Shown: positions 24,314-44,569, numbered from the stretch's first letter. The stretch: DNA of 64,000 nt from Candidatus Methanomethylophilaceae archaeon (GCA_050950505.1 JBMNHS010000001.1:32001-96000), one strand, 5' to 3'. The notes: generated by a model not told the origin, from the letters alone. Numbers and translations are program-made.

Positions 24314-26407
24314 TCAAAGCAATGTGCAGAGAGCGTCGACGGCCCAACAGCCCTTGCCCTTCTTGTCGACCATGACCGGGTTGATTTCCAGTTCATGAAT
24401 CTCAGGGTTTTCAAGGGCTATGAGAGCAATTCTCTTGACAACTTCCTTAATCGCATCGATATCCGCAGGTTCGGTGCCCCTGGCACCCGAAAGAAGGGTG
24501 TATGCCTTTGTGGATTCGATCATCCGGTTCATCTGCTCTTCGGTCATGGTCGCGTGAGCCTGTGAAATCTCCGCCATGATCTCGACGAATATTCCTCCGA
24601 GACCGAAAGACACTATGGGACCGAACTGCTCGTCACGGATCATGGACAGAATGACTTCCTCTCCGGAAACCATCTGCTGCACGGAGACTCCGTCCAATCT
24701 TGCGTCGGGTACGGCGTTCTTGCAGGAAGCCATGATCTTTTCGTAAGCCTCTTTGGCTTCCTGATCGTTCTTGACTCCGACCACCACTCCGCCGACATCC
24801 GTCTTGTGCGCTATGTCGGGAGACAGAATCTTCATTACCACGGGATAGCCCATTTTCGAGCTTTCCTTTACCGCGTCCTCCGCGGTTATGACGGAAGCTT
24901 CTCCGGGAATGGGTATTCCGTAAGCCTGGAAAATCTTCTTGCCTTCGTTTTCGGTAAGGGTCTTTCTGTTTTCCTTCTTGGCGTCTTTGATGATTTCCGA
25001 TACCGTTTCCCTTCCGTTTTTGATCTTAGGGAACTTGATCGGAGTCTTGGGAATTTCTCCGCGGACGGTGAATCCTCTGAGAATGTCCAAAGCGCGCACG
25101 GCCCTGTCGGGTGTGGGGAAAGCGGGGATTTTGCCTTCTCTGAGGATGTCCACCGCAAGTTCGCACTTGGAACCGCCGGCGAAACAGACCGTGACGGGCA
25201 CGGGTATGTCGTCCCTCATTTCCACAAGCATTTCCGCCACCGCTTCAAGATCCGCAAAGTCCAGAGGCGAACCCATTATGACGATTCCGCCCACGCTTTC
25301 GTCTTTCAGAACAGCCTCGATTGCCGCCTTGAAGTATTCCGCCTTGGCGTCACCCCTCACGTCAATGGGGTTGGTAAGGCCGGCAAGGGTGGGAACGGTT
25401 TCCGTCAGAAGTTTGATTGTGCCGTCGGTGAGCTTTGCGGCTTCGACGTATTTGGCGTCGTGAGCGGCGTCCGCCGACATGACCCCCAATCCTCCGGCAT
25501 TGGTTATGATTGCTATGCCGTTCTTTTTCATGGGGCTGCAGGTGCTCAGAACACTGATTGCGTCAAAGAATTCATCGGCGTCTTTCGCTCTGTGGATGTT
25601 CAGTTTGTTGAAGATAACGTCATAGACTGAATCCGCACCGGCAAGAGAACCCGTGTGGGAAGATGCCGCCAGAGATCCGGCTTCGGTCCTTCCGGACTTG
25701 AACGCCACCAGGGGCTTGAGTTTGTCTATGCCCTCCAGAGCTTCCAAAAGCTCCGCGCCGTCGGTGATGCCTTCGATGTACATACCGATGACTTTGGTGT
25801 CTTTGTCATCGTTGAAATAAGGAATCATGTCCGACTCGCTCATGTCGCACTTGTTGCCGTAAGTCACAAACTTCGCTATGCCGAGTTTCTGACCGATGGC
25901 CCAGTCAATGATTGAAGATGCGAAAGCGCCCGACTGCGACATCATGGACACGTTTCCGACTCTGGGCATGTGATATGAGAATGTGGTGTTGACCTTCGCT
26001 TTGGGATTCAGAACGCCGAAACTGTTGGGTCCGAATATTCGGACTCCGTATTTCTTTCCGGCTTCCACAAGTTCGTTCTCGAGAATCTCGCCTTCGGGTC
26101 CGGATTCTTTGAATCCCGCGGTAAGGATACTTGCGTATTTCGTACCGGCTTTGCCCACTTTCTCGATCTCGGCGATTACGAACTTCGCAGGGACCGCGAT
26201 AACGGCCAAATCGACGGCTTTGCCGATTTCTTCAAACGAAGTGTATGCTTTCACGCCCTGTATGGTTCCGCCTCTCGGATTTACAGGGTACAACTCACCT
26301 TCGAAACCTGCGTAAATCATATTTTTAAGCAGCATTCCGCCTAGTTTTGTCTCGTCGGTGGACGCACCTATGATGGCCACCGAGTTGGGACTGAGGAAAT
26401 CACTCAT
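24314..26407 (-). CDS. acd: ADP-forming acetate--CoA ligase, fused alpha+beta
   Basis: SVAIIGAS, GPNSFG, SQSG, KSGRT..G..AASSHTG, TNAGG.G, NPIDV, ATP-grasp HKTDVGGV and ELEINP. Confidence 0.92.
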   Translation of the reverse strand: MSDFLSPNSVAIIGASTDETKLGGMLLKNMIYAGFEGELYPVNPRGGTIQGVKAYTSFEEIGKAVDLAVIAVPAKFVIAEIEKVGKAGTKYASILTAGFKESGPEGEILENELVEAGKKYGVRIFGPNSFGVLNPKAKVNTTFSYHMPRVGNVSMMSQSGAFASSIIDWAIGQKLGIAKFVTYGNKCDMSESDMIPYFNDDKDTKVIGMYIEGITDGAELLEALEGIDKLKPLVAFKSGRTEAGSLAASSHTGSLAGADSVYDVIFNKLNIHRAKDADEFFDAISVLSTCSPMKKNGIAIITNAGGLGVMSADAAHDAKYVEAAKLTDGTIKLLTETVPTLAGLTNPIDVRGDAKAEYFKAAIEAVLKDESVGGIVIMGSPLDFADLEAVAEMLVEMRDDIPVPVTVCFAGGSKCELAVDILREGKIPAFPTPDRAVRALDILRGFTVRGEIPKTPIKFPKIKNGRETVSEIIKDAKKENRKTLTENEGKKIFQAYGIPIPGEASVITAEDAVKESSKMGYPVVMKILSPDIAHKTDVGGVVVGVKNDQEAKEAYEKIMASCKNAVPDARLDGVSVQQMVSGEEVILSMIRDEQFGPIVSFGLGGIFVEIMAEISQAHATMTEEQMNRMIESTKAYTLLSGARGTEPADIDAIKEVVKRIALIALENPEIHELEINPVMVDKKGKGCWAVDALCTLL

Positions 26408-26566
26408 AGGGGGGTAAAAAATTTTGTTGTTCATATAAGTTCCTATATTAATCGTCGTAATCTTCGAGTTTCGGCGTATATTATGCGAATATCGTAGAAA
26501 AAAGCATGTTTTTTTGAAGATTTAATAAATTTTTTCGACAAATGATGTATATTTCGTAGTTTAACG

Positions 26567-26597
26567 TCATTCAACGCAATCAACTTTCGTTGAATGA
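26567..26597. repeat. perfect 10-bp inverted repeat TCATTCAACG-N11-CGTTGAATGA
   Basis: read directly in the AT-rich region upstream of acd. Confidence 0.7.
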
Positions 26598-26693
26598 TAT
26601 AATAAACCTGCGTTAATCGGTACGAAATCCGCATCCGTCACAGATTTCAACAGGAGATTTTGCGACGGTTCGTTCCGCCGTGCTCCGGAACAG

Positions 26694-26704
26694 TTCATAT
26701 ATAC
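26694..26704 (+). promoter_or_regulatory. TATA box (TTCATATATAC) for the candidate ncRNA
   Basis: same ATATATAC core and ~21-22 nt spacing as the 5S rRNA promoter in this window. Confidence 0.55.
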
Positions 26705-26724
26705 GCCCGTGCAATACGAATATC

Positions 26725-26920
26725 GGACCGGATTGGCGTAAGGGCGGGATTCGTGAACGCCATGTGCACGATCCGGGCAATAGCGACCCTGTACCTTAAT
26801 TGGGAACTCGCGGGAGATGCGATGTGTCATCGTTTGCCGTGACCGGGAGACAACGCAGGGTTCGACACACACCCCCGACGTAAGTCAGTGCTTCGAGATC
26901 GGCGATCCGCCGGACTGTGA
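26725..26920 (+). ncRNA. candidate unassigned structured RNA
   Basis: GC-rich island with its own TATA, several nested helices, a possible pseudoknot and a GNRA hairpin; no credible ORF. Confidence 0.55.
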
Positions 26921-26931
26921 AAAAGTTTGTT

Positions 26932-26962
26932 AGCGCCCGGGGGACACTGTCCCCCGAACGCT
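26932..26962. terminator. hairpin between the candidate ncRNA and the convergent metallohydrolase gene
   Basis: AGCG..CGGGGGAC-ACT-GTCCCCCG..CGCT. Confidence 0.6.
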
Positions 26963-26980
26963 GTTGGGGTTTGGGTTATC

Positions 26981-27658
26981 TCAGAGACACATGCAGAGTT
27001 TTCTGAGCCATGCTTCCGCTTCGTTTTGTCTCGGATACAGAGCTTCCAACTCGGCGAATTCCTTTTGGTTTCTTTCCGTTGTGGGATTGAAACCCATGAT
27101 TGTGTGACACAGTTCGTGATACATCACGTAGTCCGTCACGAAATCGGGAATTTCCGGATTGTCCAATGCCGATGACAATGAAACGACCTTCATGAGAACG
27201 GAACAGTGTCCGACCTTTCTGATGCTCGGTTCCCTCGTCCACGACAGGAACATGTCCGGATCTTTTTCGACCAGACCTGCGTCTATCAATCTGTTGTAGG
27301 AATCCGTCAGGTTCCTGTGTTCGCCTTCCGGCGACCTGGTTATGTTTCTGCTCCTTCTGAGATAGATGGGCTGCTTCGTCCTTGCGAACTCGGGCGCTGT
27401 GACCCAATCGCACATTTCTTCCGAAAAAGACGTCTCGTCCCTGATGCAGATCCTTGTGAACAGGGTTTCTGCAAGGCCTTCGATCACTCTTCCGGGGGCA
27501 TCGGACAAGTAATCCGACACTTTGAAGTCGGCCCACTTGTAGGAACGTTGCCAACGGACCTTGAAGTCTTTGTAGGCCGTGAACTCGGCGGCCACTGCGT
27601 CATATTTGTATTTTTTTCCTATATTTCTGAATATTTCCTGGAGTTCTGTGTTGTCCAT
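26981..27658 (-). CDS. YgjP/DUF45-like zincin metallohydrolase
   Basis: W..........G.C, P.FV.DYVMYHELCH (HExxH); SD GGAGG. Confidence 0.75.
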   Translation of the reverse strand: MDNTELQEIFRNIGKKYKYDAVAAEFTAYKDFKVRWQRSYKWADFKVSDYLSDAPGRVIEGLAETLFTRICIRDETSFSEEMCDWVTAPEFARTKQPIYLRRSRNITRSPEGEHRNLTDSYNRLIDAGLVEKDPDMFLSWTREPSIRKVGHCSVLMKVVSLSSALDNPEIPDFVTDYVMYHELCHTIMGFNPTTERNQKEFAELEALYPRQNEAEAWLRKLCMCL

Positions 27659-27787
27659 AGGTATTCCTCCTGGCCTTTTTACGGGCCCGGGGGAATATCC
27701 GCCGAGCTGAGCCTTATTAACAGAATGATACAGTTAGACTATCGATTATACGACAGATATTTTTAAGATAACTGTTTCTGTAGGAGC

Positions 27788-28171
27788 ATGGAAGAAGATC
27801 CCAGACAGCGGGAACTCACTGAGAAAATACTCGCTGCCATCAAAAAAGAATACGGATTCATACCTCTTATCAACCAGGTTCTGGCCGAGCGTCCGGATCT
27901 GTTCGTGCCCGCCGCAAATCTCGGCCGGGCCGCCGTCGAAGGCAGAGGCGTTATGGAGAAGAAAACCAGATACCTCTGCGCTCTGGCTGCCGCGTCCGCG
28001 GAAGGCGCCGAACACTGCATAAGAGTTCAGGTCGAACATGCCATGAGGGAAGGCGCCACCAAAGACGAGATTCTCGAGGCCATGGTAATAGGGTCCTACA
28101 TGTCGATGACGAAAGCCCAATCCTACGCGTTCAGGGAATACGCCAAGATATTCAACTTGAATACGGAATAA
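27788..28171 (+). CDS. carboxymuconolactone decarboxylase (AhpD-like) family protein
   Basis: YGFIP, K.RYL.ALAAA....HC..VQ...AM.EGATKDEI.EA. Confidence 0.8.
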   Translation: MEEDPRQRELTEKILAAIKKEYGFIPLINQVLAERPDLFVPAANLGRAAVEGRGVMEKKTRYLCALAAASAEGAEHCIRVQVEHAMREGATKDEILEAMVIGSYMSMTKAQSYAFREYAKIFNLNTE

Positions 28172-28234
28172 GTAACAATAGTTAAGTATAATGAATAATT
28201 TATATACCTTAAATACAACAGAGGCGTGATACAA

Positions 28235-28558
28235 ATGGTAAAAATAACACCCGAAGCAGAGAAGTTCATTGTTGAACTTCTTGAAAAGAACAACAAGCAG
28301 AACCACGGCATCAAGATTTACCTTTCGGGTTTCGGATGCTCCGGACCCCAGTTCGGAATGTCCTTCCAGGAAACCGAGTCCGAAGGGGACATCGTCGACA
28401 CCGTTTCCGATGCGTTCAAAATATTCTATGACGAAGAAACCGCGGGACCCCTCGGGAACTGCGTCATCGAGTTCATAGACGATCCGAACTTCGGCACCGG
28501 CCTCACCATACGTGACCCCGACGCAGTGATGAACTGTTCATCCTGCTCCGGCTGCTGA
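28235..28558 (+). CDS. HesB/IscA-like Fe-S carrier protein
   Basis: KIT.EA, GFGCSGPQFGM, C-terminal CSSCSGC. Confidence 0.75.
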   Translation: MVKITPEAEKFIVELLEKNNKQNHGIKIYLSGFGCSGPQFGMSFQETESEGDIVDTVSDAFKIFYDEETAGPLGNCVIEFIDDPNFGTGLTIRDPDAVMNCSSCSGC

Positions 28559-37493: not shown

Positions 37494-37569
37494 GCAGTCG
37501 TAATCTAGTTGGTTAGGATTCGAGCCTTCCAAGCTCGTCGCCCGGGTTCGAATCCCGGCGACTGCACCA
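37494..37569 (+). tRNA. tRNA-Gly(TCC)
   Basis: GCAGTCG/CGACTGC acceptor stem, CGAGC-CTTCCAA-GCTCG anticodon arm, GGTTCGAATCC, encoded CCA, upstream TATA. Confidence 0.95.
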
Positions 37570-44446: not shown

Positions 44447-44569
44447 GGTTGACGGCCAGAGCGGCAGGGCAACACCCGGTCCCATACCGAACCCGGAAGT
44501 AAAGCCTGCCTGCGTTCCTGACTGTACTGTATTGCGCAAGCGTACGGGAACTCTGGAGCGCTGTCACCA
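44447..44569 (+). rRNA. rrf: 5S rRNA (unlinked)
   Basis: GACGGCCAGAGCGGCAGGGCAACACCCGGTCCCATACCGAACCCGGAAGTAAAGCC... with terminal pairing; own TATA at 44416-44425. Confidence 0.95.

Follow-up and report, generated by a model that had tools for sequence, protein, structure and literature searches.

Positions 26727–26946 on the plus strand of the window, the 64,000-nt stretch of DNA from a Candidatus Methanomethylophilaceae archaeon analyzed here, very probably encode a stand-alone box H/ACA sRNA of three hairpins, the diverged Methanomassiliicoccales counterpart of HgcG/Pab40/Pf7/Afu4. Archaea use box H/ACA guide RNAs to convert chosen rRNA uridines to pseudouridine. For the present RNA, conservation, secondary structure, motifs and their spacing, the partner protein genes, presence in RNA libraries and the sub-threshold Rfam homology of its relatives are matters of observation, and from these we infer protein binding, rRNA targets and any pseudouridine. 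A preliminary description had drawn attention to the locus, and its sequence and coordinates agree with the window.

The conserved block sits within a 546-bp gap separating two minus-strand genes. A covariance model (R1, built from 19 sequences) matches the window at 26727–26948 with 244.3 bits, giving an sRNA gene of ~220 nt with three H/ACA motifs, whose 3′ end is uncertain and may extend to about 26963; it is present in one copy in the 1.33-Mb genome. To the left lies a gene for an ADP-forming acetyl-CoA synthetase-like protein (ACS-like; 24314–26434, minus strand), and to the right a gene for a 225-aa protein without confident family (26981–27658, minus strand): a search of NCBIfam gave no match to it, and its best Pfam hit, YgjP-like metallopeptidase, is sub-threshold (E 0.002, 18.6 bits versus a cut-off of 26). 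A further minus-strand gene (27746–28306) encodes a conserved protein of 186 aa, again of no confident family. At Rfam gathering thresholds, the whole window returns only 5S rRNA and tRNA, both away from the locus. The 5S rRNA gene (44448–44569, plus strand, 89.8 bits) is far from the 16S (C1:697338) and 23S (C1:726846) genes of this genome, and the tRNA gene occupies 37494–37566 (plus strand).

The promoter proposed in the preliminary description holds up. A TATA-box-like ATATATA (26697–26703, plus strand) starts 30 nt upstream of base 26727, where conservation begins, and its spacing is kept in 31/38 homologues, in which an A/T run of at least six nucleotides starts between −38 and −20, mostly at −29 to −31. 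Here and below, counts of motifs and targets refer to a structural alignment of 38 sequences, 20 from the window's family and 18 from other families. Downstream, a T-run of at least four within 50 nt is found in only 14 of the 38. Metatranscriptome contigs from four runs of three studies, 124–209 nt each, cover 26738–26963 only; such contigs attest presence in RNA libraries and are silent on strand, ends and level. Over the flanks 26500–26719 and 26984–27150 there were no RNA contigs, which is an absence of cover only. One contig, from run X1, continues past the ACA box (26946) with 16 letters equal to 26853–26868, probably an assembly join via the repeated GACAC word. Upstream, where the promoters of the ACS-like gene and the sRNA diverge, two 10-bp arms, TCATTCAACG ... 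CGTTGAATGA, form an inverted repeat around an 11-nt spacer (26567–26597); this repeat could be an operator site, and its match to CRISPR-DR53 is weak and at chance level.

Could the element instead belong to one of its neighbours, as a cis-acting UTR or as a small protein gene tied to the ACS-like or the 225-aa gene? Synteny lends itself to such a reading, since within 1.5-kb flanks the ACS-like gene accompanies the sRNA at 22/31 loci and the 225-aa gene at 26/31, within the family and partly beyond, and ORFs of 60 aa (plus strand) and 101 aa (minus strand) overlap the block. We nevertheless give it almost no credence. The two genes lie on the strand opposite to the element, which is preceded by a TATA box of its own, the RNA contigs end before both genes, single-base indels occur inside the conserved block, substitutions are compensatory, and the overlapping ORFs lack a Pfam match. 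No functional link between the neighbours and the sRNA is apparent. The locus is best read, as previously proposed, as a stand-alone noncoding RNA gene with its own promoter, neither leader nor coding sequence.

The gene is near-universal in its order. At the DNA level, matches of 70–94% identity were found in 15/15 genomes of the same genus and 21/24 of the same family, and nothing credible in six other families. With R1, one full-length match each was obtained in 118 of 121 genomes of the order, covering 96/96 high-quality genomes, 31/31 genera and 7/7 families; the three genomes lacking a match are 67–79% complete. A phylum-wide sample gave matches in 40/151 genomes, the window's own order counted in; among them are genomes from three additional families of the same class and from several families belonging to other classes. 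Among the matches listed from public data, R1 confirmed 7/7 archaeal loci carrying the motif, all from Methanomassiliicoccales, and 0/5 others. Pattern matches in a Haloferax sp. and in Halorientalis are ascribed to chance, R1 giving no match there.

It is these homologues, rather than folding energy, that establish the structure. The curated structure has 96.2% of its cells paired and compensatory changes in 28/55 pairs, a number reached by 0/500 shuffles; sliding the partners by 1–3 columns leaves 1–8. RNAalifold likewise returns three hairpin domains, with 27/60 pairs compensatory. Homologues from Methanomassiliicoccales and their covariation had been named in the preliminary description as a check on the gene, and both were forthcoming: the 118 genomes of the order on the one hand, the 28 compensatory pairs on the other. 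By contrast, thermodynamics alone is unremarkable, which is why we regard the structural evidence as comparative and not energetic: the fold of the window sequence has a minimum free energy of −88.6 kcal/mol (z = −0.73; 45/200 shuffles are as stable), and folding energy is equally ordinary on the other strand (z = −0.54). Helix by helix, hairpin 1 is paired in 90.4% of cells in helix 1 (5/11 pairs compensatory) and in 100% in helix 2 (4/4); in hairpin 2, helices 3, 4 and 6 are 98–100% paired, with compensatory changes in 5/8, 3/6 and 2/5 pairs, respectively; and in hairpin 3, helices 7–9 are 93–100% paired, with three compensatory pairs in each.

Seen against this structure, the earlier folding model was right in part. 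Four of its helices (CCGGAT/ATCCGG, CGACCCTG/CAGGGTTCG, GCGATG/CATCG and CGGCG/CGCCG) are all confirmed by covariation. Others dissolve: TGGCGT/ACGCCA is paired in only 71.9% of cells, TCGCGG/CCGTGA in 76.3%, one of its pairs being broken in 14/19 sequences and another in 9/19, and the suggested pseudoknot TCGTG/CACGA is incompatible with the covarying lower stem. A GAC-GTAA-GTC hairpin, previously drawn with a GNRA loop, is compatible with the alignment (96.5% paired) and shows zero compensatory change. Taken jointly, the helices specific to that model (TGGCGT/ACGCCA, TCGCGG/CCGTGA, the pseudoknot and the GNRA mini-hairpin) are 81.1% paired versus 80.6% on shuffling, and 163/500 shuffles do as well. 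The supposedly unpaired ACACACACCCCC resolves into an ANA box, a short linker and a C-run, the last of these being a stem strand that pairs with GGGGG at 26939–26943, a pairing that itself covaries (CUCCC/GGGAG). What had been taken for a terminator stem, GGGGG-ACACUGU-CCCCC (26939–26955, plus strand), recurs within the genus only; it forms an alternative 3′ hairpin that overlaps both the lower stem of hairpin 3 and its ACA box.

Each of the three hairpins, all on the plus strand, consists of a lower stem, an internal loop (the pocket) and an upper stem. Hairpin 1 (26728–26776) has a lower stem of 26728–26735/26769–26776, extended by 3 bp (26736–26738/26765–26767) next to a bulged A26768, and an upper stem of 26743–26746/26758–26761 capped by a K-loop with GA at 26748–26749 and UGA at 26754–26756. 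Hairpin 2 (26784–26864) is built from a lower stem (26784–26791/26856–26864), an upper or NC stem (26807–26813/26843–26849) and an apical stem (26820–26824/26828–26832); its pocket comprises a 5′ strand at 26792–26806 and the 3′ strand ACAACG at 26850–26855, and its K-turn carries GA at 26814–26815 and UGA at 26840–26842. Hairpin 3 (26872–26943) comprises a lower stem (26872–26880/26934–26943), an upper stem (26889–26893/26923–26927) and an apical hairpin (26899–26913), with pocket strands UAAGUCA (5′, 26881–26887) and UGUUAG (3′, 26928–26933) and K-turn elements GA (26895–26896) and UGA (26918–26920). Hairpin 1 thus ends in a K-loop, whereas hairpins 2 and 3 have K-turns with a short hairpin cap. 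In the alignment, the K-loop GA and UGA of hairpin 1 are kept in 34/38 sequences; in hairpin 2, the UGA of the K-turn is kept in 38/38 and (G/U)A on the non-bulged strand in 37/38; and in hairpin 3, GA, UGA and GUCA are kept in 38/38 and UGUUA in 35/38.

Every hairpin is followed by an ANA box some 15 nt from its internal loop. The first, AUA (26780–26782), is part of an H-box-like AUAGCG, lies 14 nt past the conserved G(C/U)A of the hairpin 1 3′ pocket strand in the window, and reads A-N-A in 35/38 sequences. The second, ACA (26865–26867), is located 15 nt past the top of the 3′ pocket strand; it reads A-N-A in 32/38 aligned rows, the remaining rows being shifted in the alignment. The third, again ACA (26944–26946), has a spacing of 15 nt in the window, is present as ACA in 36/38 aligned rows and is placed 13–16 nt after the guide GUU(A) in 38/38. 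Overall, the spacing from the start of the 3′ pocket strand to the ANA box is 13–17 nt, and the distance from pocket to K-turn in the window, counted by sequence motif, is 7–9 in hairpin 1, 9 in hairpin 2 and 8–9 in hairpin 3. The arrangement agrees with the published design of archaeal H/ACA RNAs, for which an n+15 spacing and a K-turn 9–10 bp above the pocket are given (PMC7075261); most such sRNAs have one hairpin, seldom two or three (PMC7991803).

The genome also encodes the full set of candidate partners: Cbf5 (429 bits), Nop10 (73.5), Gar1 (32.3) and L7Ae (96.6), all exceeding curated cut-offs. In an H/ACA RNP of the expected kind, L7Ae would bind the K-loop or K-turn of each hairpin, the lower stems with their ANA/ACA boxes would be the docking sites of Cbf5–Nop10–Gar1, and the strands of the internal loop would pair with 23S rRNA flanking a uridine, which Cbf5 could then isomerize to pseudouridine. 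The weakest step in this scheme is the guide activity of the window copy, because its own guide complementarity is minimal (see below). Of the roles entertained in the preliminary description, that of an RNA component of an RNP is supported, while a ribozyme or template RNA is rejected, the AC-rich 'single strand' behind the latter idea being an ACA box plus a stem strand. Its exclusion of SRP RNA and RNase P RNA stands as well: both are encoded elsewhere in the genome (157.1 and 205.6 bits), and neither model matches the locus.

How does this RNA relate to known families? The window copy itself gives no match to RF00064 (HgcG, Pab40; HACA-box) at E ≤ 10, be it in a 501-nt search or genome-wide, and at the same cut-off the locus draws four weak chance matches from Rfam. 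By comparison, 13/13 tested relatives from the same order, 11 of them outside the window's family and two inside it, match RF00064 on the strand and at the position of the sRNA, with 21–56.6 bits (E 1.4e-13 to 0.012), the window copy and these relatives all falling short of the 77-bit gathering score. The refuting outcome named in the preliminary description, a match to a known Rfam family, has come about by half: in the homologues and below threshold, and not in the window copy. Since the window copy is without a match of its own, membership rests on transitive homology, from the window to its relatives via R1 (49.5–267 bits) and from these to RF00064. In two relatives aligned to RF00064, all three motifs are spanned in the same order, and the shared elements include the pocket strings of motif 3 and a 3′ strand ..AACCC.. 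in motif 2. With 13/13 homologues matching, we conclude that this is an RNA of a known kind.

The likeness extends to architecture. HgcG/Pab40/Pf7/Afu4 of Thermococcales and Archaeoglobus also carry three tandem H/ACA motifs, every one of which has its own K-turn or K-loop and ANA box; the pocket strands of motif 3 are near-identical (consensus GGGUUAG/GUGUUAC in RF00064, GGGUCAG/UGUUA here), and the 5′ pocket of Pab40 motif 1, AAGCGAGG, recurs in hairpin 1 of one sister family. The RF00064 model is longer, its 276 positions including ~55 nt upstream, compared to ~220 nt for the sRNA described here. In P. abyssi 23S rRNA, motifs 1, 2 and 3 of Pab40 are reported to act at positions 2588, 1932 and 2016, the last within stem-loop 69 (PMC2377435). 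The site shown for motif 2 of Pab40 is thus Pab 1932 and not the A-loop, a difference from hairpin 2 here; for motif 2 of Afu4, the same paper mentions a target once proposed at A. fulgidus 2601, equivalent to Pab 2647 (PMC2377435). Relative to Pab40, the window's family has altered the pockets of hairpins 1 and 2. By an offset estimated from E. coli pseudouridine positions, the proposed Afu4 target would fall within the A-loop, at about E. coli 2551–2555. The same estimate puts Pab 2603 near E. coli 2507–2511, outside the A-loop, and equating the hairpin 2 site with P. abyssi ψ2603, a guide-independent Cbf5 site, is therefore wrong.

An unrelated RNA with K-turns, that is, an L7Ae-binding regulatory or scaffold RNA that is no Cbf5 substrate and whose ANA boxes and pockets are coincidental, is very improbable. 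K-turns are common to many archaeal RNAs, and the window copy is below the Rfam threshold; coincidence would, however, have to account for three ANA boxes at H/ACA spacing, for the match of 13/13 relatives to RF00064 and for a complementarity of sister-family hairpin 2 to rRNA that is far above chance (see below).

The Haloferax volcanii RNA sR-h45 is a second point of reference, by its published description. It is ~200 nt long with several H/ACA stem-loops and K-turns, as is the window RNA, and has an internal H box, AUAGCU, after its first stem-loop, to be compared with AUAGCG here; its 3′-most stem-loop guides the helix-69 pseudouridines ψ1940/1942 (E. coli 1915/1917) at the same target sequence, GGGGUAAC-UAUG-ACCC, with UNUN unpaired (PMC7075261). 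The two also differ: sR-h45 consists of two stem-loops joined by a 56-nt linker, whereas the window RNA has a full K-turn hairpin in the middle, and stem-loop 1 (SL1) of sR-h45 guides ψ2605 (E. coli 2586; PMC7075261), a site to which hairpin 1 here shows no complementarity. In eukaryotes, the two conserved pseudouridines of helix 69 have H/ACA guides too, U19 in humans and snR191 in yeast (PMC7075261). Being two-hairpin snoRNAs without K-turns, they resemble the window RNA functionally only. Judged by titles and the beginnings of abstracts, none of the papers found on Methanomassiliicoccales and pseudouridine deals with H/ACA RNAs.

Which uridines might be modified? Of the three hairpins, hairpin 3 has the best-supported predicted target: helix 69, at U1949 and possibly U1951 of the organism's own LSU rRNA (E. 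coli U1915/U1917; here and below, E. coli positions derive from an alignment with a 23S gene of that species). In 38/38 homologues, hairpin 3 can pair with helix 69 in a constant register over 8–14 bp, GUU(A) with (U)AAC and ..GUCA with UGAC.., leaving U1949-A1950 (E. coli U1915) unpaired. With the best-matched type (6+7 bp), helix 69 comes out first in both rRNAs, a result that 6/200 shuffles reach; a sister-family type with 4+6 bp is reached by 110/200 shuffles and is not significant alone. The window's own hairpin 3 pairs over 4+4 bp, ranks 4 of 59, and is equalled by 199/200 shuffles.

For hairpin 2, a strong predicted target in sister families is the A-loop of helix 92, at LSU U2583 (E. 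coli U2555; U2554 in variants). In a sister-family genome, ACAACCCC and AAUGGGU can pair with GGGGUUGU and GCCCAUU around U2583-C2584 (E. coli U2555), an 8+7-bp duplex that is the top match and is reached by 0/200 shuffles. Such a hairpin would be a canonical guide RNA for pseudouridine at the A-loop; no report of pseudouridine at E. coli U2555 in archaea was met in the literature surveyed. The A-loop site is the top match for 12/38 hairpin 2 sequences, and the total reaches 12–17 bp in 13/18 sequences outside the window's family. Within that family, only CAAC and (U)GGG are left (5–10 bp), and the window's own hairpin 2 pairs over 5+4 bp with three target bases unpaired. A canonical scan with the window's hairpin 2 pocket returned no A-loop duplex, and 184/200 shuffles beat its best real match. 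The target sites themselves are identical to the window's in 23/24 genomes for helix 69 and in 22/24 for helix 92.

The pockets of hairpin 1 vary between families, and its target can be assigned only tentatively, to LSU U2524 (E. coli position 2496). Beside this position, the 5′ strand pairs over 7–8 bp in some genomes; we call the assignment tentative because the 3′ strand pairs over only 0–4 bp. Scans of hairpin 1 against each genome's own LSU fragment gave weak, inconsistent matches only, around GGUUUGUUGCUUUUU. As a candidate guide for E. coli U2586, the SL1 site of sR-h45, hairpin 1 was rejected, no complementarity being seen. Among the other scans, the first, run with initial pocket boundaries, yielded nothing above shuffles, and G/C-rich stem matches dominated a bipartite scan run without constraints.

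These comparisons also brought up features of the 23S rRNA as such. The organism's own 23S gene is at C1:726846–729760, outside the window. In a block of the peptidyl-transferase region, LSU 2495–2550, it reads GGCUUGCUACUUCGCUGUCGGCUC versus GGUGUUUGGCACCUCGAUGUCGGCUC in E. coli, the differences including 2495 G>C, 2496 C>U, 2499 C>U and 2503 A>C (E. coli positions); GCUACUUCGCUGUCGGCUC, which contains these four changes, is kept in 22/22 other genomes of the order examined. At LSU 2609–2631, the window's family has GGGUUUAAAACGUCGCGAG, and five other families of the order as well as a same-family genome (G113) have GGGUUUAGACCGUCGUGAG; relative to E. coli, this segment shows G2588>A and U2596>C. 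Finally, the LSU fragment of one locus, L125 (G063:C5:449397–453202), is only 77% identical and differs in helix 92 (GGCGGAGUUCACGC), and could represent a diverged rRNA copy or one of foreign origin.

Compared to the sister families, the window's family has remodelled its pockets. In hairpin 1, the pocket is narrowed or partly closed by the covarying 3-bp helix, which is G-C in 14 sequences and A-U in five. In hairpin 2, the 5′ pocket strand folds onto itself in 18/20 same-family sequences, as opposed to 0/18 from other families: an inserted, covarying mini-hairpin would capture the 5′ guide (..UGGG) with a CCC(U/A)A strand that resembles the rRNA target strand GCCCAUU. These cis mini-hairpins comprise 3–6 bp and, in nine sequences that differ from one another, attain −5.9 to −7.1 kcal/mol; that of the window is weak (3 bp, −1.7 kcal/mol). 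All the while, the pocket bases are invariant within the family.

Such features raise the question of whether the RNA, though derived from an H/ACA guide, still is a conventional guide in the window's family (f1, Methanomethylophilaceae-like), or else serves as a chaperone or scaffold for rRNA folding together with L7Ae and Cbf5, or guides through hairpin 3 alone. The window's guides are at or below the published 8-bp minimum (PMC7075261, citing De Zoysa 2018), with 4+4 bp at helix 69 and 5+4 bp at the A-loop; the canonical scan with the window's pockets came up empty, a covarying helix shuts the pocket of hairpin 1, in most of the family a mini-hairpin ties up the 5′ guide of hairpin 2, and the pocket bases are invariant nonetheless. 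Yet the invariant CAAC, GGG, GUCA and UGUUA are exactly the bases through which the sister-family RNAs pair with both rRNA sites, ANA spacing is preserved, 8–9 bp may be enough, and the mini-hairpin of the window has only 3 bp. On balance, we consider the loss of conventional guiding unlikely, and a three-hairpin H/ACA guide sRNA remains our preferred reading. Similarly doubtful is the suggestion that the family's three-site guide, remodelled yet highly conserved, is a self-masked and possibly regulated guide, or one on its way to becoming a non-modifying chaperone of ribosome assembly.

The window RNA is a diverged copy of a known family and not a new RNA class, and in that sense fairly ordinary. 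Its recognition accounts for an RNA gene that is conserved yet an 'orphan', passed over by standard Rfam annotation throughout an archaeal order that includes gut methanogens, and the 38-sequence structural alignment could serve to broaden RF00064. For the biology of the order, the prediction is that 23S rRNA would carry pseudouridines at helix 69, at the A-loop and perhaps in the peptidyl-transferase region. The pockets themselves, open in the sister families and closed or self-paired in the window's family, provide a natural series in which to follow how multi-hairpin H/ACA guides may lose or change their targets.
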